A stretch of 64,000 nucleotides of DNA from an uncultured Candidatus Saccharibacteria bacterium (GTDB lineage: Bacteria > Patescibacteriota > Doudnabacteria > UBA920), in NCBI GenBank assembly GCA_964631145.1, contig CAZVXT010000001.1, positions 457,237 to 521,236 on the forward strand, written 5' to 3'. A model generated the notes under the pieces. It saw nothing but the letters and a program-made list of their open reading frames with translations. It was not told the DNA's origin and did no database searches. Position numbers and translations under genes: made by a program. Below are positions 4,285 through 16,513 of the stretch, in pieces (position 1 is the first letter of the stretch; each line of letters starts with the position of its first letter).

Positions 4285-7200
4285 ATGCAACAAATAATCG
4301 TTAAGTTTTTGCTTAATGCAAAGCTTAAAATAAAAGGACTCTCAGCCTCAGTGTGTCCGAGTGGTAAGGACATGGTTTTTACCACAGCTTCAGTGATTTC
4401 TGGTGTTTCTTTGGTTTTGTCTACTTTTGTGCCTGTAACAGCAAGTGCTGCAGCGCAAAGCATTAAGACCACAAATGCAAATTGTGTGGCAGTTAATATT
4501 AACCAATACTCAACCGGTGATTTTGTTTGGGTTGATGTAAATGGTTTTGACCCAAATACTGTATATGCTTGGTCTATTACTGGACAGCCAGGATCTGCTG
4601 ATCCTAGCACAATTGTCGCTTCTGGTAACGCAACTACAGATGTAAACGGAGAGCTATGTTTTAATACCAACTATGATGTAAAGTCTGATGATAGTGGTGT
4701 ATATAAAGTAGCTTTTGATAATAAGAATGATAACTATACAGTCCGCTCAATTGTGCCGGATCCTGTACAGTGTTTTGCTGCCCCTGTTACAGTTGTAACT
4801 CCAAGTAATACTCAAGGTTGGAATACTGCAGATACCCGATCTAATGGTTCTGTAACTTATGTAAATGATGCTACAAGCCCAGCTCCGACCGGTGCATTGA
4901 GTTTAGTTACTGGCGCTGCTACAGGAAGCCCGCTTCAAGATAAAGCTCAGTATATGCACGCTGTAGATTCTTTGCCTTTATCCCAGGTCTCAAAACTTTG
5001 TTATTATACAAAGCAAAATAGCGCTTCTTTTGCTGATGGTGCCCCTTCTTATCAGTTAGTTGTTTACTTAAATGGCGGTACTTCTGGCTTTACTACTTTT
5101 GTATATGAACCTTATAATAATGGTTTTCATATTAACCAAGGAACATGGCAATCTTGGGATGTTTCTGCAGGTTCAATGTGGTCGTCAAAGTCAGTCACTT
5201 GTAGCAATGGTTCTGTGATAGCTGGTGGTGGGGGAGCCCCATTTTATACTCTTTCTCAAATAACTACTATGTGTCCTGATGCAGTTGTAGCGGGTTTTGG
5301 TGTTAATGTAGGCTCAAATAATCCTAATTGGGATACAGAAGTAGATTATGTTCAGTTTAATAACAATTTATATAATTTTGAATTAGACCCTGTATTAACT
5401 TCTAATGTAAAAGTTTGTAAAGTTGATAGTAACAAAAACCCTCTATCTGGTTGGGATGTGTTTTTGAAAGGGGATTTGATAGAGACTGTAAATGTAGATT
5501 CTAATGCTTCTACAGGTGCTAATTCTGTTAATGCTTTAGAAGCAGGTAAAAAATATGTTGTAGAAGTAACTGGTACATGGCAGAACCGTGGTTTTGAAAC
5601 CGTTGATGCTAGTTTTACCACACCTGACTCATGGACAACTGTTTTAGACGCTCCTCAGGGTGGTTATCCTGATAATCTGTTGGAATTACAAGTAAATAAC
5701 AATTTTGTTAATTGGGGACCTTATAGTTTAGCTCATAAATACAGCTATATCTACACTGGTGGTGGAGCATCTGCTAATTTTAGAGTATTTGATGGTGATG
5801 TGGATACCAATACAGTTAATTCTAGTTGGTATGGAGATAACGTTGGTCAGCTCCAGGTTAAAATTTATAAGGCATACGCTGGTGTAACGACTAACATTGA
5901 TGGATGCGCTACATTAACAAATGTTCCTTATGGCAACTATGTAGTTTCTGAAATTATGCAACCAGGTTGGGCTAATGTCAGTGGTAATAATGTTGAAGTT
6001 TTAATTAATAAAGCTCAATCAGAATTCGTTTTAGTTAATCGTTGTACAACCGAAGCTTGTGCTCCACAGACAGTGGATCCAAAAATTCATTTTATGAAAG
6101 TTGTCTGCCAAAGTTACTCTAGTATAAACGGAAACGAAGCCGCTGATAGTTATGATCATACTCCAAATAAAAATTATACTCAGTTTGCTAATTTTACTGA
6201 AAGTGGGTTTGTAACAAATTATTTGGTAAATGGTTTTGTTGACCCTTCAGAAATTCCTGGTAAAGACTCTGGTTGTGGTTTGGCTAGTGGTTGGGGATTT
6301 TTACTCTCAACTGATCAAGATCAGCATAATGATAATCAGATTGTAACAACTGATGCTAATGGTGTTTATACAACGAATGTTTCTAGTCTGCCGCAAGCTT
6401 TGTCTTCTGGTATCAGAAACGGAAATTTTTGGGTTAGTGAAGTAGAGAAAAAAGGGTATGATTTCGGTGCTATTAGATGCTATAATGATGCATTAAATGG
6501 CGATAACTTAGAATTAATTAATATTGGAAATTCTAATCCTGCAGACATATATTGTATTGCTTACAATGTAGAACAAATTAAGCCTTGTGTAGTTGAGCCT
6601 ATTAATGTAGTTAGCGGTACTACAACTAAATTTTTAGGTCTTAAAGAGGGTGTTGCTCCAGTAGATTTGAAAGCTCCAGGAAACTATCCAGGTGGGGTTA
6701 TGGATTTTGCTGTTGAGGTTGGACCAACTGGATTCCCTGGTGCTTGGGACGGATCTATTAATAGTCCAGACTTATCTGGTGCCAAATATGTAAGTAATAG
6801 CATTACACAGCCAACCGTTTCTGGTGGTGCTGGATTTGATGGTAGTGTAGATTCTTGGCGCTTATTTAGCCACACATTTACTGTGCCTGCTGGAGCCGTA
6901 AATATCTCTACTCCTTCATTGCATTTTGCTGCTGATAATGAAGTTGCAGTTTATTTGGACGAAACTTTAATTGGAACAAGTTCTAGCTTTAGTAATTCGA
7001 CCACTGTGGGTCCATTAAGTAGTATTAGTGTTGCTCCAGGTACTCACACTTTAAAATTTGCCGTAAAGAATTATGCATTTGACCAAACTAACAACCCTAC
7101 AGGCGTCATTTATAAATTAGATACCATTAATTACGACTGTGGTTCTACTGGCGGCGGTTCAAATAAATTTAGTATTTCCGGTAAAATTTACGAAGATTTG

Positions 7201-7878
7201 GACGAAAGCAATTCTAATAATTCTGGTGATAATCCATTAAATGGTTGGACTGTAAAGTTGGACAATGTTGCAACCGAAACTGATGAAAATACTACAACAA
7301 CTTCTGATTCTAATGGAAATTATATATTTGAAAATTTGGACGCTGGTTGTTACTTAGTTTCTGAAGTACTGCCAAGCGGTTGGGCTCAGACCGAGCCAGC
7401 AGTAGATACTCATACTTACCAAGTTGCGATTGGTGGTGTAAATAATTGTGACGCTTTTAACGGCGAATCTTCAATTATTGGATTCTTTGCAAAGACTGCT
7501 CATGCTGCAGCTGTACAACAACAGTTAGCATTTGCAGGTAATGCGAGTGGAATTAATTTTGGTAATTTTGATATCCCTTCTGGTAATGGCGGTGGTTCTG
7601 GCGGTAATGGTGGAAACGGTGGAGGTTCTGGCGGATCTGGTAGTGGTGGAACACCTCCTGCCGACCCAGGAACTCCAACAAACACCGGTAGAGTGCTAGG
7701 GGATAGTACCAATATCCCTTCTGACAGCATTTCAATTCCTACTCCAAGAGTTTTGGGAGCTGAAACAACTCTTCCACGAACAGGATTACCTCTAAACATA
7801 ATTATTTGGTTTGTTTCAACATTAGCAGCTACTTATTGTGTTTATTCTTTGATAAGCAAAAAACTTTCCAAGAATTAG
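4285..7878 (+). CDS. Giant LPXTG cell-wall-anchored surface protein (adhesin-like; Cna-B/SpaA-type fold repeats, Gly-rich stalk)
   Basis: The C-terminus is ...TTLPRTG + hydrophobic TM (LPLNIIIWFVSTLAATYCVYSLI) + basic tail SKKLSKN, a classic sortase sorting signal. Internal G.Y....E..P.GW motifs occur (YGNYVVSEIMQPGWA; GNYIFENLDAGCYLVSEVLPSGWAQTEP). A GNGGGSGGNGGNGGGSGG linker and an N-terminal signal-like hydrophobic segment are present. The alternative start ATG at 4372 is not excluded. Confidence 0.85.
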   Translation: MQQIIVKFLLNAKLKIKGLSASVCPSGKDMVFTTASVISGVSLVLSTFVPVTASAAAQSIKTTNANCVAVNINQYSTGDFVWVDVNGFDPNTVYAWSITGQPGSADPSTIVASGNATTDVNGELCFNTNYDVKSDDSGVYKVAFDNKNDNYTVRSIVPDPVQCFAAPVTVVTPSNTQGWNTADTRSNGSVTYVNDATSPAPTGALSLVTGAATGSPLQDKAQYMHAVDSLPLSQVSKLCYYTKQNSASFADGAPSYQLVVYLNGGTSGFTTFVYEPYNNGFHINQGTWQSWDVSAGSMWSSKSVTCSNGSVIAGGGGAPFYTLSQITTMCPDAVVAGFGVNVGSNNPNWDTEVDYVQFNNNLYNFELDPVLTSNVKVCKVDSNKNPLSGWDVFLKGDLIETVNVDSNASTGANSVNALEAGKKYVVEVTGTWQNRGFETVDASFTTPDSWTTVLDAPQGGYPDNLLELQVNNNFVNWGPYSLAHKYSYIYTGGGASANFRVFDGDVDTNTVNSSWYGDNVGQLQVKIYKAYAGVTTNIDGCATLTNVPYGNYVVSEIMQPGWANVSGNNVEVLINKAQSEFVLVNRCTTEACAPQTVDPKIHFMKVVCQSYSSINGNEAADSYDHTPNKNYTQFANFTESGFVTNYLVNGFVDPSEIPGKDSGCGLASGWGFLLSTDQDQHNDNQIVTTDANGVYTTNVSSLPQALSSGIRNGNFWVSEVEKKGYDFGAIRCYNDALNGDNLELINIGNSNPADIYCIAYNVEQIKPCVVEPINVVSGTTTKFLGLKEGVAPVDLKAPGNYPGGVMDFAVEVGPTGFPGAWDGSINSPDLSGAKYVSNSITQPTVSGGAGFDGSVDSWRLFSHTFTVPAGAVNISTPSLHFAADNEVAVYLDETLIGTSSSFSNSTTVGPLSSISVAPGTHTLKFAVKNYAFDQTNNPTGVIYKLDTINYDCGSTGGGSNKFSISGKIYEDLDESNSNNSGDNPLNGWTVKLDNVATETDENTTTTSDSNGNYIFENLDAGCYLVSEVLPSGWAQTEPAVDTHTYQVAIGGVNNCDAFNGESSIIGFFAKTAHAAAVQQQLAFAGNASGINFGNFDIPSGNGGGSGGNGGNGGGSGGSGSGGTPPADPGTPTNTGRVLGDSTNIPSDSISIPTPRVLGAETTLPRTGLPLNIIIWFVSTLAATYCVYSLISKKLSKN

Positions 7879-7953
7879 TTAGCTAAAGAAAAGAGCGTTC
7901 TTGCAACGCTCTTTTTAATTTTAGATCAAACTATTTGATGTTAAAATAAGGTT

Positions 7954-8547
7954 ATGAATTTTATTAGAAAATATAAAATTATATTAATTTTAATTTTGTT
8001 GTTACTAGTTATCAGCTTAGTGTTATTTTATCCTTATTTTTATGAGCGATATATTAGAAAAAATAATTTACCCAGCTCTCTTAACTTAGATAATTCTAAA
8101 CAGCAAGATAAAGATAATCCTAATGTTTTGCAAATACCAACTCTTGGGATTTCGGCACCTATTAATTATTTAGATCAGCCCGATGAAAGTTTGTTTCAAC
8201 AGTCTTTGCAAACAGGAGTGGTGCATTATCCTGGCAGTGCTAATCTTGGACAAGAAGGAAATGTATATATTTTTGGGCACTCATCTGATTATCCATTTAC
8301 AAAAGGAGAATATAAAACTGTTTTTGCAAAATTACCAGATATAAAATTAGGATCATCTATATTTTTGACAGACAAAGATGGTAAAAAGTATGAGTATCTG
8401 GTTGCTTCAACCAAAGTTGTTGCTAGCAACGATGTTTCTGTACTATCTCAAGATACAAAAGGACAGAGAATGTTAACATTGCAGACATCTTATCCTGTTG
8501 GTACAGCTTTAAAGAGGTTTGTAGTAATTTGTTACTTAAGAATATAA
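7954..8547 (+). CDS. Sortase-family transpeptidase homolog with Ser at the nucleophile position
   Basis: An N-terminal TM anchor is followed by a conserved His (NVYIFGHSSDYP). The TLXTC-equivalent motif reads MLTLQTSYP, and an Arg lies ~10 residues downstream (ALKRFVV). The gene is immediately downstream of the LPRTG protein. Confidence 0.7.
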   Translation: MNFIRKYKIILILILLLLVISLVLFYPYFYERYIRKNNLPSSLNLDNSKQQDKDNPNVLQIPTLGISAPINYLDQPDESLFQQSLQTGVVHYPGSANLGQEGNVYIFGHSSDYPFTKGEYKTVFAKLPDIKLGSSIFLTDKDGKKYEYLVASTKVVASNDVSVLSQDTKGQRMLTLQTSYPVGTALKRFVVICYLRI

Positions 8548-8774
8548 AAATGGTAGAAGCTTTAAAAATGATATTATTTGCTTTAAATAAGCCATTTTCG
8601 CACTAAGTTAATTGGTAATCCACAGCTATAGTATAAAAATCTTTTTTAATATTATTGACAAAAAGCTTGTAAAACCCCAATATTTTCTATATCATTAAGT
8701 TATAAATATTAGTTGTCCACAACAGGACAAAACAATTAAGATTATCTTCCTAAAAAGAAGATAAAAGGAAAAAT

Positions 8775-9047
8775 ATGACAAAATCAGAGACTTTGCAACA
8801 TTTGGCGGAAAAAACCGGCAAGAGCAAAAAAGAAGTAAGTGAAATGTTAGAGGCAATCGTTGCCTTAGCTTACTCTGAAACAAAGAAGAGCGGTGAATTT
8901 ACTTTACCTGGTTTAGGTAAACTTCAAAAAAAGCATCGTGATGCTCGCACTGGACGCAACCCTGCAACAGGTGCAACTATTCAAATTCCTGCAAAAACTG
9001 TCATCAAGTTCCGTATTGCAAAAGCAGCTAAAGATTCAATTCTTTAA
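8775..9047 (+). CDS. hup: DNA-binding protein HU (HU/IHF family)
   Basis: MTKSETLQHLAEKTGKSKKEVSEMLEAIV..GEFTLPGLGKLQKKHRDARTGRNPATGATIQIPAKTVIKFR is an HU-fold signature; the RBS is AAAGGAAAA. Confidence 0.9.
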   Translation: MTKSETLQHLAEKTGKSKKEVSEMLEAIVALAYSETKKSGEFTLPGLGKLQKKHRDARTGRNPATGATIQIPAKTVIKFRIAKAAKDSIL

Positions 9048-9052
9048 TTTTA

Positions 9053-9087
9053 AAAAACCAGCCCTTTTTGGGCTGGTTTTTATTTTG
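9053..9087. terminator. Bidirectional intrinsic terminator between hup (+) and the response regulator (-)
   Basis: AAAAAACCAGCCCTTTTTGGGCTGGTTTTTATTTT: an A-tract before the hairpin and a T-tract after it serve both strands. Confidence 0.7.
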
Positions 9088-9092
9088 TAATG

Positions 9093-9500
9093 TTAAGCTT
9101 TAGTGTCTGGGGCAGATAAAACTTGATTTACCTTTTTTAAAATTTCTTCGGTGTCGTAGTACGCCTTCACCATATATGCTTGAACATTTAAAGCTTTAGT
9201 CTTGAGGATATCTTTATTGCTCCATAAGTTGCTAAGCACTATAATAGGAGTAGAGGCTATTTTTTTATCAGAATGGTGCCTAACTTGTTCTAGAACTTCA
9301 AACCCATCCATTTCAGGTAACATTAAGTCTAACAGTACCAAAGCTGGACCTTCTGAGATAATTTTTTCTAAACCTTCTTTTCCATCACCAGCTTGTACAA
9401 CTGTAAAGCCATTGTTAGATAGTTTATGTGCGACGATTTCTCGCATTGCAATCTCGTCTTCTACGATCAAGATTTTTTTATTTAAGTCTTGGGTTGCCAT
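9093..9500 (-). CDS. Stand-alone CheY-like response-regulator receiver domain
   Basis: KILIVEDE....LLDLMLPEMDGFEVL...PIIVLSN...KAL carries the REC-fold acidic pocket and phospho-Asp context, and there is no output domain. Confidence 0.85.
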   Translation of the reverse strand: MATQDLNKKILIVEDEIAMREIVAHKLSNNGFTVVQAGDGKEGLEKIISEGPALVLLDLMLPEMDGFEVLEQVRHHSDKKIASTPIIVLSNLWSNKDILKTKALNVQAYMVKAYYDTEEILKKVNQVLSAPDTKA

Positions 9501-9533
9501 CTCTTTTTCAATTAATTGTATTATAACATAGGA

Positions 9534-11075
9534 ATGTCAAAAGTAATTGAGTTGAACGGTAAAGATCTTACTATTTCTCAAATAGTTCAAATAATTTCAA
9601 ACAAAAATCAAAAAATAACTATTGCTACCAAATCTAAAAACATCATTGATGCTTCTTTTGCGTTTGTCCAAAAAAGTTTAACTAAAAATGTTATCTACGG
9701 GGTAAACACAGGTTTTGGACCTATGGCGTCCCATATTTTACCAAAGGATAAGCTAATAGAATTACAATATAATCTGATTCGTAGTCATGCTACAGGCATG
9801 GGTAAGCCATTAGATCAGGATGTAGTGCTAGCAGCAATGATTGTGCGTTTAAATACTTTAGTGAAAGGTTTTTCTGGAGTCTCTATAGAATTACTAAAGA
9901 CTTTAGAGAAATTTATCAATGCTAGGATTATTCCATTTGTACCAGAGCATGGCGCTGTAGGGACTAGTGGTGATTTAATTCAATTAGCTCATATCGCATT
10001 AACTTTGATAGGGGAGGGTCAAGTTTGGTATGAGGGTAAGATCCAATCTACAGATAAAGTATTGCTTAAACTAAAAATAAAGCCTCATAAATTATTTCCT
10101 AAAGAAGGGTTATCTTTGATTAATGGTACTTCTGTAATGGCTGGTGGGGCAGCATTGGTTTGTAATGATGCTAATAAGTTAATACAGAGCTCAATTTTGA
10201 ACGGAGCTGAGTCTTTAGAGATTGTAAATTCGTATAGCGATAGCTTTGATGAAGTTCTTCATCAGCTTCGTCCTCAGCAAGGGCAATCGCAGGTTGCACA
10301 AACTTTGCGTAGTTTATTAAAAGATTCCAAACTAATTAGGCAAAGAGAAAGCTTAACTTACCAAGATAGTTTTAACCAAGGTGTTACTAAAATTGACGAT
10401 AGGGTACAAGAAGTATATTCACTTCGCTGTATACCTCAGATTGTTGGTCCCATATTAGATACTTTGCAAAAGGCAGAAAAAGTTGTAGAAGTTGAATTGA
10501 ATTCTACAACAGATAACCCTATTGTGGATGTTAAAAATAAAAGATTTTTGCATGGTGGAAATTTCCATGGGGACTATATTGCTGTGGCTATTGATCAATT
10601 AAAAGCTTCTTTGGTTAAATTGTCAATGCTATCTGAAAGAAGAATTAATTTCTTTTTAAATCAGAATATAAATAAGATTTACCCACCATTTTTAAATTTG
10701 GATACGCCGGGCTTAACATTGGCTTTGCAGGGTTTGCAGTTTGTAGCTACATCTACTACTGCTGATAATCAGTCTTTGGCTTTTCCGCATTCAGTTCATA
10801 GTATTAGTACAAACGCTGATAATCAAGATGTTGTAAGTATGGGCACTGATGCAATGTTATTTGCAAGACAAGTAGTAGAAAATTGCTACATTGTTACTGC
10901 AATTGAAAATGTTGTTCTTACTCAAGCTGTTGATGTTTTGAATTTTTCAAATAAGCTATCCAGCTCCACTAAGCAAAATTACAAAGCAGTTCGCAAGGTT
11001 TTTCCAGTTGTTATATCAGACAAACCTTTATTTAGCCTTTTGCCAAAAGTCATTGATTTATTAAAGCATGAATAA
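9534..11075 (+). CDS. MIO-dependent aromatic amino-acid ammonia-lyase (HAL/PAL/TAL family; HAL-like)
   Basis: YGVNTGFGPMAS..IRSHATGMGKPL.. ..IPFVPEHGAVGTSGDLIQLAHIALTLIGEG.. match the family. The MIO-forming triad position reads Thr-Ser-Gly rather than Ala-Ser-Gly. The six-frame ORF track begins at a TTG at 9516, but the ATG at 9534 is more plausible. Confidence 0.85.
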   Translation: MSKVIELNGKDLTISQIVQIISNKNQKITIATKSKNIIDASFAFVQKSLTKNVIYGVNTGFGPMASHILPKDKLIELQYNLIRSHATGMGKPLDQDVVLAAMIVRLNTLVKGFSGVSIELLKTLEKFINARIIPFVPEHGAVGTSGDLIQLAHIALTLIGEGQVWYEGKIQSTDKVLLKLKIKPHKLFPKEGLSLINGTSVMAGGAALVCNDANKLIQSSILNGAESLEIVNSYSDSFDEVLHQLRPQQGQSQVAQTLRSLLKDSKLIRQRESLTYQDSFNQGVTKIDDRVQEVYSLRCIPQIVGPILDTLQKAEKVVEVELNSTTDNPIVDVKNKRFLHGGNFHGDYIAVAIDQLKASLVKLSMLSERRINFFLNQNINKIYPPFLNLDTPGLTLALQGLQFVATSTTADNQSLAFPHSVHSISTNADNQDVVSMGTDAMLFARQVVENCYIVTAIENVVLTQAVDVLNFSNKLSSSTKQNYKAVRKVFPVVISDKPLFSLLPKVIDLLKHE

Positions 11076-12591
11076 TGATAATTTTAATTGGTTAGACAAA
11101 CAGTTTGATTACAAGAAGCATCTGGCAATTGAAAATCGTATTAACCAATTTGAATATAAGCAATACCAAAAAACCTTCCAATCTGTAAGCTCAGAAGAAA
11201 TAGAAAAGCATAGCTTTAAAAGAGCTTTATCATTTTTTAAGTACGTAAGTAAGAATGTGCCTGCCTATAAGGATTTTTTGAAAAAGAATAAAATAGATCC
11301 TGAAAAAATACAAAATCAAAATGATTTTAATCTAATTCCATGGACAGACAAAGAAAATTATATTTCTAAATATAGTTTAGAGGATAGAAGCTTTGGCGGA
11401 GGTAACTTAAAAAATAATTTAATAGCCATAAGTTCTGGCACCACAGGCAATCCAACCTTATGGGCTCGCAGTGCATACCAAGAGTATGAGGCTTTTGTTT
11501 TTCATCAAAAATTGTTTATTGATCAATTTGAAGTTCATAAAAAAACAACTTTAGTTTTGATTGGCTTTCCAATGGGTGTGTATGTTTCGGGGATAGCGAC
11601 ATTATTGCCTACTTGGCTATTAACCCAAAAATACCCAGGACTATCAGTGGTTAGTGTGGGAAATAACAAAGCTGATATGCTGAAGGCAATGGAGCAGCTA
11701 AGTTATTCTTATGATCAGACTATTTTGGTTGGACATCCATTTTTTTTGAAAGATGTTATAGAAACTGCCACCGCTAGAAAAATAAAGCTAGACAAATTTA
11801 ACATTAGCTTAATGTTTTGCAGTGAGGGGTTCTCTGAAGATTGGCGAGAGTATGTTTCATCTGTTTTAAATCCTAAAGGCAAGGTAAAAGCAATTAATAC
11901 CTACGGCTCATCAGAATTTTTATTAATGGCTAATGAAAATCAGAGGACCATTGATTTTAGAAAGGCTGTTAATGGCACAGCTCTTGGTGACAAGCTTTTT
12001 GGTAGTCGTAACGTGCCAAGTTTATTTGAATACAATCCTTATCATAGATATTTGCAAGAAAGCAGTAATGGGGAAATTCTTTGTACAGCAGTTAGTGGTG
12101 TTCCTCTTATAAGATATAATATGCACGATGCTGGAAAAATTATTTCTGCCCAACAGTTTAATTTGTATAGCAGGCAGTTAAATTTGAAACCGACGAAATC
12201 AAATTTACCTATAGTGGTTTTGCAAGGTAGGAGCGATTATGGTGCTGTTTTTTATGCGGCGAATATTTATCCTAATAATATCCATGCTGCATTACAACAC
12301 GATAAGTTATTTAAAAAATTAACAGGTAAGTTTTCATTAGAAAAAAAATATAAAAATAATATGGATGAAGATTTGGTCATTCATATAGAATTGCAAGACA
12401 AAGCCTTAGCAAATAAAGACCTTCTAAAATTTATTAAAGATAATGTAATAAAAACTTTATCATCTTTAAATTTAGAGTATCAATTTTTGCAAAAGAATTT
12501 GGATAAAAACATTGATCCTAAAATAAAACTCCATGCTTATCAACACCCCAAATATTTTAAGCCGGGATTAAAACCAAGATACATTGTATAA
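11068..12591 (+). CDS. PaaK-like adenylate-forming ligase (phenylacetate-CoA ligase / CoF390-synthetase-like, ANL superfamily)
   Basis: The AMP-binding P-loop SSGTTGNPT and the PaaK-like IPWTDKENY motif are present. The gene overlaps the upstream lyase by 8 nt. Confidence 0.7.
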   Translation: MNNDNFNWLDKQFDYKKHLAIENRINQFEYKQYQKTFQSVSSEEIEKHSFKRALSFFKYVSKNVPAYKDFLKKNKIDPEKIQNQNDFNLIPWTDKENYISKYSLEDRSFGGGNLKNNLIAISSGTTGNPTLWARSAYQEYEAFVFHQKLFIDQFEVHKKTTLVLIGFPMGVYVSGIATLLPTWLLTQKYPGLSVVSVGNNKADMLKAMEQLSYSYDQTILVGHPFFLKDVIETATARKIKLDKFNISLMFCSEGFSEDWREYVSSVLNPKGKVKAINTYGSSEFLLMANENQRTIDFRKAVNGTALGDKLFGSRNVPSLFEYNPYHRYLQESSNGEILCTAVSGVPLIRYNMHDAGKIISAQQFNLYSRQLNLKPTKSNLPIVVLQGRSDYGAVFYAANIYPNNIHAALQHDKLFKKLTGKFSLEKKYKNNMDEDLVIHIELQDKALANKDLLKFIKDNVIKTLSSLNLEYQFLQKNLDKNIDPKIKLHAYQHPKYFKPGLKPRYIV

Positions 12592-13795
12592 TATAAATAT
12601 GATAAAAACTCCCAAGTGGTTAAAAGTTGCTGATATAAATACAAAACCTGTTGTTCAAATTTTTGATTTGCAAAAATTATATAACCAAAGCAAAATTGAA
12701 GAGATTATAAAAATAAATAAACCACATATCATTGATACATATACAGAGCAGTTAGAAGACTTGTATTTGGTTAGGCATCCATTTTTAAAAACACAACCCG
12801 ATAAAGCGCATCTAGAATTATCAGAACATATAGGGCAAATTTCTAAAAATCCATTATGGATGCAAGGCAGTTGGATTTTTTTACCGTGGAGTAATAGTTT
12901 GATTCATTTGTTATCAAATACAGATTATTATGAGTTGCGCACTTCAAGAAATAAAAATTTAATTACAAGTTTGGAGCAAAATAAAATTAAAAAATCTAAA
13001 ATCGGAATTGCCGGTTTGAGCGTTGGTAATGCTGCCGCCGTAGGTGCCGCTTTAGAAGGCTTTCAAAATATTAGAATTGCTGATTTTGATAATTTAGCTG
13101 TAGTAAATTTAAATCGCATTCGAGCTGGTATTACAGATTTGACTGTTAATAAAAGCTATATTACCGCAAAGCAGATTTATGAAGTTGATCCATACGCAAA
13201 AGTTGATATTTATCATCAAGGTTTGAATGGTAATAAGCTAGAGCAGTTTATTAAGGATTTGGATGTTATGATTGATGAGATTGATGATGTGGAAGTAAAA
13301 ATTAAGCTTAGACAATTAGCTCAAAAATATAAAATTCCGGTAATTTCTGCTGCTGATAATGGCGATGGGGTTATTGTAGATATACAAAGATTTGATCTTA
13401 ATAATAAATATCCAATTTATCATGGAGACTTACACGAAACCAAACTTGATAGTATAGCCAAAATGGGATTTGGATCAAAGATAAAATTAATTAATGAAAT
13501 GGTGGGTATAGAGTACGTGACCGATAGGATGAAACAATCTTTGCTTGAAGTAGGGAAGAGTTTATATTCTTGGCCTCAGCTTGGCGGTGCTGCAATGATA
13601 ACTGGCGGGGTCTTGGCTTATTTAGCAAAAGGAATTGTGCTTGGGCATGATTTGCAAAGTGGTAAGTATGATTTTAACCCTGACTCAGTATTTATAAAAG
13701 CATTTAATTCTGCCAAGCAAAAAGCCCAGCGTAGAGCTGGTACAAAGAAGTTTTTGAAAACTCAATCAGAAATTTTTAATTTTAAAGTAATTTGA
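12584..13795 (+). CDS. E1-like ThiF/MoeB/MccB-family adenylyltransferase with ~130-aa N-terminal extension
   Basis: A Rossmann GxGxxG motif (KIGIAGLSVGNAAAVGAALEGF) is followed by IRIADFDNLAVVNLNRI, the E1 Asp/Arg motif. The gene overlaps the upstream ligase by 8 nt. Confidence 0.75.
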   Translation: MYNINMIKTPKWLKVADINTKPVVQIFDLQKLYNQSKIEEIIKINKPHIIDTYTEQLEDLYLVRHPFLKTQPDKAHLELSEHIGQISKNPLWMQGSWIFLPWSNSLIHLLSNTDYYELRTSRNKNLITSLEQNKIKKSKIGIAGLSVGNAAAVGAALEGFQNIRIADFDNLAVVNLNRIRAGITDLTVNKSYITAKQIYEVDPYAKVDIYHQGLNGNKLEQFIKDLDVMIDEIDDVEVKIKLRQLAQKYKIPVISAADNGDGVIVDIQRFDLNNKYPIYHGDLHETKLDSIAKMGFGSKIKLINEMVGIEYVTDRMKQSLLEVGKSLYSWPQLGGAAMITGGVLAYLAKGIVLGHDLQSGKYDFNPDSVFIKAFNSAKQKAQRRAGTKKFLKTQSEIFNFKVI

Positions 13796-14847
13796 TGATA
13801 CAAAAAGAGGTTTTAGTAAAAATTATTACAGCGGGTGGACACGCTCCTTCAGGCGATAACTGCCAGCCATGGTCTGTTCGTTTGTATGACGATGGTTTTG
13901 CTCTATACAACTTACCTGATAGAGATAACTCTTTGTATAGTTTTGGGCAACGGGCTTCTATGGTTGCTTTAGGGGCTTTTATAGAAAACTGCCTTATTAA
14001 GGCAGCTGATTTGGGTTATAAAACAGATATTAAATATTTCCCTGATGGTGAAGACAGTGATTTGGTGGCTTATTTAAATTTTGAGATAAATAACGAAAGC
14101 TACGGAAACGATTTGGCTAGATTTATAGAGCAAAGAATAACAAATCGTAAAATGTATCTAGGGCAATTAGTCGAACCTCTAAAAGTTGACAAACTTTTAC
14201 AAACTAGCGATTCATTAAAGTTGGTTAGTGAGAAGTCTATGATTAATCAGCTTGGACAAATCGCTAGTATCAATGAGAGGATTTTATTTGAAAATCAGCA
14301 GATGCATAGTTTTTTTTATAACCATATAAATTGGACCGAGGAAGAAGATATAAATAAAAAAATTGGCTTTTATTTACCGACCTTAGAAATTCCTAAAAAT
14401 AAGCAATCGGGCTTTAAGTTATTTAAGCATTGGTTGGTGTGTAAAACCTTGAATGTGTTACTAGGTTTTTCTAAGATATTAGCTAAAGAAAATTCTAAGG
14501 TATATGGCTCTGCTTCAGCAATGGGTATTATTACCATTAAAGATTATAGTAAGCTTGGGTATATTAAAGCAGGACAAGAATTTCAGCGAGTTTGGCTACA
14601 AGCGACAGAACTTGGTTTAAGCTTTCAGCCTTTAACAGGAGTGCCATTTTTAAAGCTACGAATCGATAATAATAAAGCAGGAGAGTTAAGCCTTACACAT
14701 CAAAAATTAGTTAACGATGCTTATTTATCGATACAAAAAATTTTTGAGACTAATGATAGGGTGGCGATGATGTTTCGTTTAGGTTACGCAGACTCGCCAT
14801 CCGCACATTCTCGTCGTTTTAATGTTTTAGATATAATTCAGTCATAA
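13792..14847 (+). CDS. Nitroreductase-superfamily oxidoreductase, apparently two-domain (SagB/McbC-like dehydrogenase candidate)
   Basis: The N-terminal AGGHAPSGDNCQPW matches the nitroreductase PS..N.QPW signature. At 351 aa it could hold a tandem fold. A 4-nt ATGA overlap links it to the E1-like gene. Confidence 0.7.
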   Translation: MMIQKEVLVKIITAGGHAPSGDNCQPWSVRLYDDGFALYNLPDRDNSLYSFGQRASMVALGAFIENCLIKAADLGYKTDIKYFPDGEDSDLVAYLNFEINNESYGNDLARFIEQRITNRKMYLGQLVEPLKVDKLLQTSDSLKLVSEKSMINQLGQIASINERILFENQQMHSFFYNHINWTEEEDINKKIGFYLPTLEIPKNKQSGFKLFKHWLVCKTLNVLLGFSKILAKENSKVYGSASAMGIITIKDYSKLGYIKAGQEFQRVWLQATELGLSFQPLTGVPFLKLRIDNNKAGELSLTHQKLVNDAYLSIQKIFETNDRVAMMFRLGYADSPSAHSRRFNVLDIIQS

Positions 14848-14848
14848 A

Positions 14849-16513
14849 ATGGGTATAGATTTTGGAACATTTGCAAATATTGATTTATTAATCATTGGTA
14901 TTGCGATTGCGGGTATCGCTATTTTATCAATGGTTGTGTACTTAAATAATAGAAGAAGTATTACCGCTAAGTCCTTCTTGTTTTTTGCATTGATGACAAT
15001 CGCATATGGTGTTATAAATTTTTCTTCTAGCAAATTCATAGATCATGATCTTGCATTGTGGAGTTTACGTTTAACTTTATTTAGCGCAGTATGGCATGCA
15101 TTTTCTTTGTATCAGTTATTTGTGGTGTTTCCTTTGGAGCAAACGAGTTATGATTGGAAATACAAGTATATAGCTGTTCCCGCTACTATTATTGCTTCTC
15201 TTTTAACTTTAACACCATTAGTATTCTCTGGGATTAGTCAAGAGATTGCTTTTGGGCAAGTAGCAAATCCAGAAAAAGGCCCTGGTATTGCACTATTCGG
15301 TTTAGTCGCATTTGGTTTGGTATTCTCGGCTTTGTATGTGCTGATAAATAAGGTTAGAAATTCTCAAAGTTTAGAAAAGAAACAGTTAAGCACTGTCTTA
15401 ACTGGCACAATTTTTACTATGATGTTAATTTTTGTGTTTAACTTTGTCTTGCCAGTTTTTTATAATAATACTCGTTATGTACCGCTAGCACCTCTTTATA
15501 TCCTACCGTTCATAGCTTTCACGACTTACGCTATAGTTAGACACAAACTATTGGATATTAAAATAGTTGGAACAGAAATTTTAGTATTTGTCCTAGCGGT
15601 TACATCTTTAATCGAAGTTATTATTTCACAAAATTTTGGCGTTTTGTTTTTTAGAAGCAGTGTATTTTTACTAGTTTTGGGAGTAGGTGGTTTGTTGGTT
15701 AGCAGTGTGTTTAAGGAAGTTAAACAGAGACAAGAGTTGGAGATTTTGAGTACAGATTTAGCCAAGGCAAACGAAAAACTAAAATCTTTGGATAAAGCAA
15801 GGGCAGAATTTATCTCAATCGCTAGTCATCAACTAAGAACACCTCCAGCTACAATTAAATGGTATATGTCAGCAATTTTATCTGGCGACTTTGGTAAAAT
15901 ACTCCCAGAAACTTTACCAGCATTGCAAACAGTACAAGTAACTAATGATGCTCAGATTTCTACTATTGATGACTTGCTTAATGCTTCCAGGATTGAGCGA
16001 GGTAAGCTGGAATTCTTTTTTCAACCAGGCGTGATCGAGCCAATAGTACAAAATCTGGTTAATCAATTACAACCTTTGGCACAAATGAAAAAGTTGCGCA
16101 TTAATTATCAGCCACCAAAGACCACAATACCAGAGTTTATTATGGATCAGGAGAAGATTCGCCAGGTAATAAATAATATGATTGATAATGCTATTAAATA
16201 CACTAAACAAGGGGATATTGATGTAAAATTGGTTCGAAATAGAGACGGGGTTACGCTTAGTGTTTCTGACCAGGGCAAAGGTATTAGACAAGAGGATGTG
16301 AAGAAGTTATTTGCTAAATACTCCAGAGGACAAGATTCTGCTACTCAAGCAACTGGGCTAGGTTTGGGGATGTATGTTGCTAAGGTTATAGTAGAGCAAC
16401 ATAATGGAAAGATTTGGGCAGAGAGTGCGGGGCTCGATAAAGGTTCTACTTTTTCTTTCTTTATTCCATCAAAGAATAATTTAAAAGCAACTACTTTTGA
16501 TTTAACTAAGTAG
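14849..16513 (+). CDS. Sensor histidine kinase with ~7-8 N-terminal TM helices
   Basis: H-box ASHQLRTPP, N-box NMIDNAIKYT and G-box GLGLGMYVAKVIVEQHNGKIW are present. The start is 2 nt after the nitroreductase stop. Confidence 0.85.
   Translation: MGIDFGTFANIDLLIIGIAIAGIAILSMVVYLNNRRSITAKSFLFFALMTIAYGVINFSSSKFIDHDLALWSLRLTLFSAVWHAFSLYQLFVVFPLEQTSYDWKYKYIAVPATIIASLLTLTPLVFSGISQEIAFGQVANPEKGPGIALFGLVAFGLVFSALYVLINKVRNSQSLEKKQLSTVLTGTIFTMMLIFVFNFVLPVFYNNTRYVPLAPLYILPFIAFTTYAIVRHKLLDIKIVGTEILVFVLAVTSLIEVIISQNFGVLFFRSSVFLLVLGVGGLLVSSVFKEVKQRQELEILSTDLAKANEKLKSLDKARAEFISIASHQLRTPPATIKWYMSAILSGDFGKILPETLPALQTVQVTNDAQISTIDDLLNASRIERGKLEFFFQPGVIEPIVQNLVNQLQPLAQMKKLRINYQPPKTTIPEFIMDQEKIRQVINNMIDNAIKYTKQGDIDVKLVRNRDGVTLSVSDQGKGIRQEDVKKLFAKYSRGQDSATQATGLGLGMYVAKVIVEQHNGKIWAESAGLDKGSTFSFFIPSKNNLKATTFDLTK

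Follow-up and report, generated by a model that had tools for sequence, protein, structure and literature searches.

The gene at positions 7954-8547 (+) of the stretch analysed here (the window, that is, the whole 64,000 nucleotides taken from contig CAZVXT010000001.1 of an uncultured Doudnabacteria genome, GCA_964631145.1) encodes a sortase of 197 amino acids (aa) that carries a serine, Ser179, at the position of the catalytic cysteine. In the papers found, which reach to 2026, all sortases are described as cysteine transpeptidases with a His-Cys-Arg triad (PMC13257024), and the abstracts of two reviews describe them likewise (PMC8225981; PMC11987632). A preliminary description of the window, made from its letters alone, had noticed the serine and treated it as the oddity of a single gene; it is in fact the mark of a whole clade of Ser-type sortases, present in at least 172 species-level genomes. 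On the sequence evidence we favour, with modest confidence, the reading that the window gene codes for a sortase that is natural, conserved and probably competent in catalysis, whose nucleophile is Ser179 and which is paired with the LPRTG protein encoded upstream. We would extend this reading, at the same restrained strength, to the clade: these may be the first natural serine-nucleophile sortases, a monophyletic, Doudnabacteria-centred group of the candidate phyla radiation (CPR) in which His-Cys-Arg has been rebuilt to His-Ser-Arg, possibly in a Ser-His-Asp-like arrangement with Asp112 and Gln177, and which would anchor LPRTG proteins through an oxo-ester acyl-enzyme, some of them as self-processing fusions. 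In the full-text literature searched, whose coverage is incomplete, we found no description of Ser-type sortases, a large group found in tiny uncultured bacteria of the CPR/Doudnabacteria type and, as far as that search reaches, previously undescribed.

A serine at the catalytic position of the sortase fold

The sortase architecture proposed in the preliminary description was confirmed by the match of the 197-aa protein to the Pfam Sortase family PF04203 (E = 4.3e-23; 81.8 bits against a cutoff of 26.6), by an AlphaFold2 model built from 120 homologs (mean predicted local distance difference test score 87.6) and by a Foldseek search of the PDB, in which the top 50 matches were all sortases of class A, C or D (E ~1e-11 to 6e-10; target-normalised TM-score 0.51-0.78). 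In the model the sortase barrel has eight strands and places the His after beta4, the Ser after beta7 and the Arg inside beta8, with strands that end at residues 108 and 178, immediately before His109 and Ser179, and a strand from residue 187 that contains Arg188. The N-terminal transmembrane (TM) anchor that had been noticed was found as well, as a hydrophobic helix at ~residues 7-29, and a C-terminal TM segment is absent. By its fold, Pfam family, His and Arg positions, anchor and substrate, the window protein belongs to the sortase superfamily, and by NCBIfam it fits none of the classes A-F. The generic sortase model TIGR01076 was barely passed (39.7 bits; cutoff 39.35) and all class cutoffs were missed widely (score/cutoff), the best being the SrtD-exception model (56.7/140) and class D (53.2/165), with class E at 40.5/160, class C at 38.1/160, class F at 33.3/166 and the marine GN model at 30.4/158.

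The translation contains ...GNVYIFGHSSD...MLTLQTSYPVGTALKRFVVICYLRI, in which TLQTS stands where the TLXTC signature of sortases has its Cys. That this serine sits at the canonical nucleophile position, as had been claimed, was established by two alignments. With phmmer against PDB sortases, LTLQTS of the query fell on the (L)TLVTC/TLITC of class A enzymes, its GHSS on the catalytic-His motif and its ...KR on the catalytic Arg; the aligned S. pyogenes SrtA residues are His142 (the His of SHH) and Arg216. With hhalign, the profile was aligned to S. aureus SrtA and paired His109 with His120, Gln177 with Ile182, Thr178 with Thr183, Ser179 with Cys184 and Arg188 with Arg197. The features of the gene are as follows.

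7954-8547 (+), Ser-type sortase gene, 197 aa (Pfam PF04203, AlphaFold2 model, Foldseek)
7972-8040 (+), N-terminal membrane anchor, ~residues 7-29, KIILILILLLLVISLVLFYPYFY (sequence reading; AlphaFold2 helices 3-24 and 26-37)
8278-8280 (+), His109 (CAC) in GNxYIFGHSSD, matching the catalytic His, His120 in S. aureus SrtA (alignment, conservation)
8287-8289 (+), Asp112 (GAT), specific to the Ser clade, three residues past the catalytic His (column counts)
8482-8484 (+), Gln177 (CAG), specific to the Ser clade, at the SrtA Ile182 position (column counts, alignment)
8488-8490 (+), Ser179 (TCT), aligned with the catalytic Cys, Cys184 in S. aureus SrtA (alignments, conservation, codon spectrum)
8515-8517 (+), Arg188 (AGG), matching the catalytic Arg, Arg197 in S. 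aureus SrtA (alignment, conservation)

The conserved His that the preliminary description saw in NVYIFGHSS is thus His109, on the catalytic His. Some of its positions need correction: the Arg does fall on the catalytic Arg, but 9 residues after the serine and not ~10; the serine codon is indeed TCT, but two bases off the ~8486-8488 given there; and the in-frame Cys of VVICYLRI (Cys193) exists, but lies 14 residues downstream and not ~12.

Conservation of the serine and of the residues that switch with it

A protein search of 5.8 billion sequences retrieved 564 relatives, and the best 120 of them, 42-64% identical, were aligned; these come from NCBI, JGI, ENA and Logan assemblies, and many are named Doudnabacteria or Patescibacteria. 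An alignment of orthologs had been suggested as a check on whether the serine is conserved, and it is: Ser occupies the nucleophile column in 120/120, within the motif L-[TS]-L-Q-T-S-[YW]-P-x-G-T-A-x-x-R, whose Q, S, P, G and T never vary. A wider phmmer search, over 1.84 billion representatives at 50% identity, gave 4812 matches at E<=1e-3 and 101 at E<=1e-30. Among the best 150 of these 4812 representatives the column holds Ser in 118, Cys in 26 and Ile in 1, the remainder being truncated there, and the Cys-bearing representatives start only at E ~1e-29 and weaker. The His109 column is invariant (120/120 near homologs and 149/149 cluster representatives), and the Arg188 column holds Arg in 119/120 near homologs and in 144/144 non-gap representatives. 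Strict purifying selection acts on the Ser, the His and the Arg alike, across catalytic domains whose identity within the Ser clade has a median of 55% and a minimum of 39%. In public databases the Ser-type proteins are annotated as 'sortase', 'sortase A' or 'class E sortase'.

We scanned 185,579 genomes, each representing a species, with Ser-motif peptides as bait and found 172 relatives, mostly in metagenome-assembled genomes (MAGs) of Doudnabacteria or Patescibacteria; 80 loci were fetched. Paralogs occur as tandem pairs in two of them (L030 and L043) and as two copies, in loci L018 and L072, of one MAG, and every copy is Ser-type. The 80 loci and the window together supplied 83 DNA copies, selected by the Q[TA]S motif itself, in which the nucleophile serine is encoded by TCT (31), TCG (19), TCC (18), TCA (13) and AGC (2); the codon varies while the amino acid is fixed, which means that the third codon position is free to vary. 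The AGC codons are confined to the two paralogs of one MAG (CAZMHN01; L018:~9708 and L072:~2644). To pass from TCN to AGC takes two substitutions, possibly via Cys (TGC) or Thr (ACC).

As one origin of the serine the preliminary description had offered an error of sequencing or assembly at a single base, by which the TGT of an ordinary Cys sortase would have come out as TCT. One substitution does separate the two codons, but we give this explanation practically no credence: the serine is invariant in hundreds of full-length homologs assembled independently in four sources and is written in five codons, two contigs, each from a different source, carry a protein identical to the window sortase, and the window gene carries, besides the Ser, the other residues of the Ser clade (D112, P128, Q177, Y180 and A185). 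The suggestion that the true TLXTC motif lies elsewhere, with Cys193 as a displaced nucleophile, was ruled out too. The Cys193 column is not conserved (Ala in 94/120 near homologs, Cys in only 4/120), and 82/120 near homologs are Cys-free. Since an alternative thiol is impossible in those 82 proteins, the lack of a spare Cys supports activity of the serine itself. Recoding or post-translational conversion of the serine is likewise unsupported, all TCN codons and AGC being used.

Unclassified Cys sortases of other CPR bacteria are the closest relatives of the Ser-type sortases, and one of them (P0242) bears the annotation Candidatus Berkelbacteria, a further CPR lineage. The Cys-type representatives read TL[MVI]TC[WYT]PxGTxxxR in a register identical to that of the Ser motif, so the positional homology of Ser and Cys is unambiguous. 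A midpoint-rooted neighbour-joining tree of catalytic domains separates the Ser-type and Cys-type proteins into mutually exclusive clades. The two groups share His109, Arg188, Thr178, Pro181, Gly183 and the GN.Y.FGHSS block, and the CPR/Patescibacteria Cys sortases (36-52% identity) also resemble the Ser-type proteins in their N-terminal anchor, P.GT...R spacing and short beta7-beta8 loop. They differ in the Cys itself, in the Met, Ile or Val two residues ahead of it, in the residue after GHSS, which is mostly Tyr, and in a more variable residue after the nucleophile. Upstream of one Cys-type CPR sortase, L086:7265-7993 encodes a 242-aa protein that ends ...QTLPATGPNSADI, with no TM segment or basic tail after LPATG, and this is either a truncated gene or another kind of signal.

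When the columns of the 118 Ser-type and 26 Cys-type representatives were compared, five positions were found to switch along with Cys -> Ser.

Asp112: Ser group 110/118; Cys group 5/26, mostly Tyr
Pro128: Ser group 107/118; Cys group 4/26
Gln177: Ser group 117/118; Cys group Met/Ile/Val
Tyr/Trp180: Ser group 117/118 (Tyr 104, Trp 13); Cys group Thr/Trp/Tyr/Val
Ala185: Ser group 107/118; Cys group Asn/Thr/Ala/Asp

The motif around the serine (QTS[YW]PxGTA) is also more constrained than its counterpart in the Cys relatives. Gln177 lies two residues ahead of Ser179 on one strand, so that the two side chains should face the same side; Ile182, at the same position in SrtA, lines the floor of the LPXTG pocket beside the His and the Cys. 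Asp112 and Gln177 are the first residues to consider as those that would allow a serine nucleophile to work.

The preliminary description had left two natural explanations, a Ser-nucleophile variant or a catalytically dead pseudo-sortase. Both remain, and although the sequence alone does not settle the choice, the evidence leans to an active Ser enzyme, because the His and Arg are invariant, five residues co-vary with the Ser, the motif is tighter and the LPRTG linkage and fusions described below are present. A conserved pseudo-sortase, the main rival, which we regard as rather unlikely, would keep the fold and the LPRTG groove without cleavage and act as a membrane receptor, chaperone or retention partner for the LPRTG protein, whose sorting signal would be processed by another enzyme or by none. 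A mere binder, however, has no evident use for an invariant Ser or for invariant catalytic His and Arg, and the motif is more constrained than that of the Cys relatives; Ala, Gly or Thr never substitutes for the Ser in >230 sequences. That the nucleophile position tolerates only Ser in so many diverged sequences supports activity.

The sole Ser-less member provides an internal contrast. P0250 (MBI4363768.1, Candidatus Doudnabacteria) is nested inside the Ser clade, has Ile at the nucleophile column, and shows a decayed motif around the lost Ser (QAIYTVGSEEKR; the motif is also given as LTLQAIYTVGSEEKRF). Probably this is a genuinely dead paralog, and the loss of its Ser together with the decay of its motif is the picture of relaxed selection, which the other members of the clade do not show. 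A pseudoenzyme would be recognised by loss of the nucleophile with relaxed constraint on the His and Arg, whereas in this clade the His, the Arg and the Ser motif are invariant or nearly so, and decay is seen in P0250 alone.

The LPRTG proteins and their genomic linkage

The preliminary description placed a presumptive LPRTG substrate next to the sortase, and we agree with it. The gene just upstream on the same strand encodes a large surface protein that ends in TTLPRTG, a hydrophobic stretch and KKLSKN, and the short gap between the two genes holds two candidate expression signals.

4285-7878 (+), presumptive substrate, a 1197-aa surface protein (open reading frame (ORF) list, Pfam)
7771-7785 (+), LPRTG sorting motif, residues 1163-1167 (direct sequence reading)
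7888-7916 (+), terminator-like hairpin with a 12-bp stem and a T-run, between the substrate and sortase genes (consensus match only)
7920-7947 (+), promoter-like site TTTAGA-16-TAAAAT (TG-extended), just before the sortase ATG (consensus match, weak)

The signal peptide of the 1197-aa protein likely begins at Met30 (MVFTTASVISGVSLVLSTFVPVTASA), and Pfam finds the prealbumin-like domains SpaA (PF17802; E = 1.5e-13) and SdrD_B (E = 3.3e-10) in it. Its C-terminus reads PRVLGAETT-LPRTG-LPLNIIIWFVSTLAATYCVYSLIS-KKLSKN, the hydrophobic stretch being 21 residues long. A Gly/Ser/Asn-rich low-complexity linker, GNGGGSGGNGGNGGGSGGSGSGG, lies at window ~7600-7700 (substrate residues ~1105-1140) and is followed by a Pro-rich stretch and then by the sorting signal. 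The hairpin at 7888-7916 could set a high ratio of substrate to enzyme expression; in a consensus scan for promoters and terminators, site counts in the region were no higher than expected from shuffled sequence.

Within the 64-kb window there is only one LPXTG-tailed ORF (4285-7878) and only one sortase-like ORF. The pairing recurs: in 61/79 loci the next gene upstream, on the same strand, ends in LPxTG, a hydrophobic segment and a basic tail, the 79 being those of the 80 fetched loci in which a sortase ORF was detected. Of the 60 upstream genes scored, 55 have LPRTG, 4 LPVTG and 1 LPKTG, and the substrates range from 99 to 1684 aa over the related loci. Each residue of LPRTG uses its full set of synonymous codons, including both CGN and AGR for Arg, which places the motif under selection at the amino-acid level. 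The sorting signal extends further upstream, to the consensus P-Q-V-L-G-A-x-T-E-LPRTG-x-P (window 7744-7791 and 60 loci). This extension, an X that is almost always Arg, and a Pro often found two residues after the Gly suggest recognition beyond the pentapeptide. A candidate substrate peptide for the ectodomain of the Ser-sortase (~residues 50-197) is VLGAETTLPRTGLP.

In four cases substrate and enzyme are one protein. In each of these single ORFs (L038:8858-10429, which is P0127; L047:7985-10465; and the database proteins P0130 and P0143) a surface protein with its LPRTG motif is continued by a TM segment, a basic loop and another TM segment into a Ser-sortase domain, and the topology predicted from this order places both ectodomains outside the cell. 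Such fusions could be self-processing. To our knowledge, natural substrate-sortase fusions have not been described earlier. Linkage and fusion would suit a non-catalytic binding partner equally well, and to that extent they count for a pseudo-sortase.

Some copies stand in another setting. The order ftsW-murG-Ser-sortase, with abutting or overlapping genes, is found in five loci (L043, L046, L050, L053 and L058; ~7700-10600 in each), where the FtsW/RodA (SEDS) and MurG identities were confirmed by Pfam and where no LPxTG protein lies within 10 kb. These copies look like housekeeping-type sortases embedded in a cell-division/lipid II cluster. That they and the paralogs are all Ser-type speaks against a pseudo-sortase, and activity is supported because the paralogs keep the Ser and a subset of copies sits in a lipid II operon.

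The signals and contexts also bear on what an active serine enzyme would do. It might work mainly as a hydrolase, a sheddase or maturation protease that cuts LPRT|G and so releases or matures the surface protein. By general chemistry oxo-esters favour hydrolysis more than thioesters do, substrate-enzyme fusions would need self-cleavage only, and the gene neighbourhoods of the nearest Cys relatives are heterogeneous (five loci examined), with no clean comparison to be drawn from them. We nevertheless hold this to be improbable, and more so than a pseudo-sortase. The Ser-type systems retain the complete sorting signal, with TM segment and basic tail, and an N-terminal anchor as in classical wall anchoring; in five loci ftsW and murG stand beside the sortase gene, which points to lipid II; and the serine DD-transpeptidases (penicillin-binding proteins, PBPs) establish that Ser acyl-enzymes are capable of transpeptidation.

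The gene order of the window is rpsK-rpsD-rpoA-rplQ-rplM-rpsI, LPRTG protein, Ser-sortase, HU and a response regulator (- strand), and the order rpsI, substrate, sortase, HU, response regulator is shared by ~8-20 loci. The response regulator (9093-9500, -) is divergent from a run of overlapping genes at 9516-16513 (+). Encoded in this run are an aromatic amino-acid lyase of the HAL/PAL family (E = 2e-162), a protein of 507 aa without a match in Pfam, a member of the ThiF family, a protein that resembles nitroreductases and a seven-TM histidine kinase. For a CPR genome of small size such an operon is unusual; its genes may form a cluster for small molecules or for peptide modification.

Proposed catalysis and comparison with known systems

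We propose, on the basis of the sequence, the following catalytic cycle, including the roles of Asp112 and Gln177 and the identity of the acceptor. The N-terminal helix would hold the Ser-sortase outside the membrane, where it would bind the extended sorting signal (VLGAxT-LPRTG) of a membrane-retained precursor. His109 would act as general base and activate the O-gamma of Ser179, perhaps assisted by the clade-specific Asp112, Gln177 or both, and Ser179 would attack the Thr-Gly bond to give an oxo-ester acyl-enzyme, with Arg188 stabilising either the oxyanion or the substrate. The acyl-enzyme would then be resolved by an amine, supplied by lipid II or peptidoglycan, and the LPRTG protein would become fixed to the cell wall.

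Several points weigh against an active serine transpeptidase. By general chemistry, aminolysis is a less favoured fate for an oxo-ester acyl-enzyme than for a thioester. The bait peptides of the genome scan held the Ser motif, so that the frequency of Cys forms is not measurable from it. It is possible that a Cys sortase elsewhere in the same genomes does the real work; no Cys-type sortase was found in the 64-kb window or in the 80 Ser-bait loci (up to ~20 kb each), which argues against a pseudo-sortase, but this survey covers only the window and those loci. Finally, the C184S mutant of S. aureus SrtA loses most of its activity (PMC4827206), which means that a Ser fails in an unmodified sortase active site. 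The crippled mutant and the fact that the characterised sortases of the literature are all Cys enzymes are at the same time arguments for a pseudo-sortase.

Retained substrates and a strictly conserved, deep Ser clade would amount to a natural switch of nucleophile from Cys to Ser within one fold, with D112, Q177, Y180, A185 and P128 as candidate compensating residues, and the rule that sortases are cysteine transpeptidases would be broken. The finding bears on how ultra-small, host-attached CPR bacteria display large adhesin-like surface proteins. If active, such a cysteine-free sortase may withstand oxidants and reagents that attack thiols, a property of interest for protein ligation by sortases; if inactive, these proteins would be a pseudo-sortase both widespread and conserved, with a function new in its own right.

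Compared with the classical sortases of classes A-F (MEROPS C60; e.g., S. aureus SrtA with His120/Cys184/Arg197, and S. pyogenes SrtA), the window protein has the same fold, Pfam family, His and Arg positions, Thr before the nucleophile and LPXTG-type substrate with TM segment and basic tail, whereas it differs in its Ser nucleophile and in a signal fixed as LPRTG with an upstream VLGAxT(E/T) extension. The laboratory mutant C184S of S. aureus SrtA shares the nucleophile substitution of the Ser clade, but its active site is otherwise that of a Cys enzyme, unchanged, while the Ser clade adds four to five co-varying changes. The Ser and Cys forms also remind us of the PBPs and the LD-transpeptidases, since peptidoglycan transpeptidation is possible through either a Ser oxo-ester (PBPs) or a Cys thioester (LD-transpeptidases); the folds are unrelated to that of the Ser-sortase, and the likeness is one of analogy only. 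The rhombosortase/GlyGly-CTERM system likewise pairs a serine enzyme with a C-terminal sorting signal (PMC3237569). Rhombosortase is, however, a polytopic intramembrane protease of the rhomboid family, with another fold, another signal and no homology to sortases, whereas the Ser-type enzymes proposed here keep the sortase fold and the LPRTG signal.

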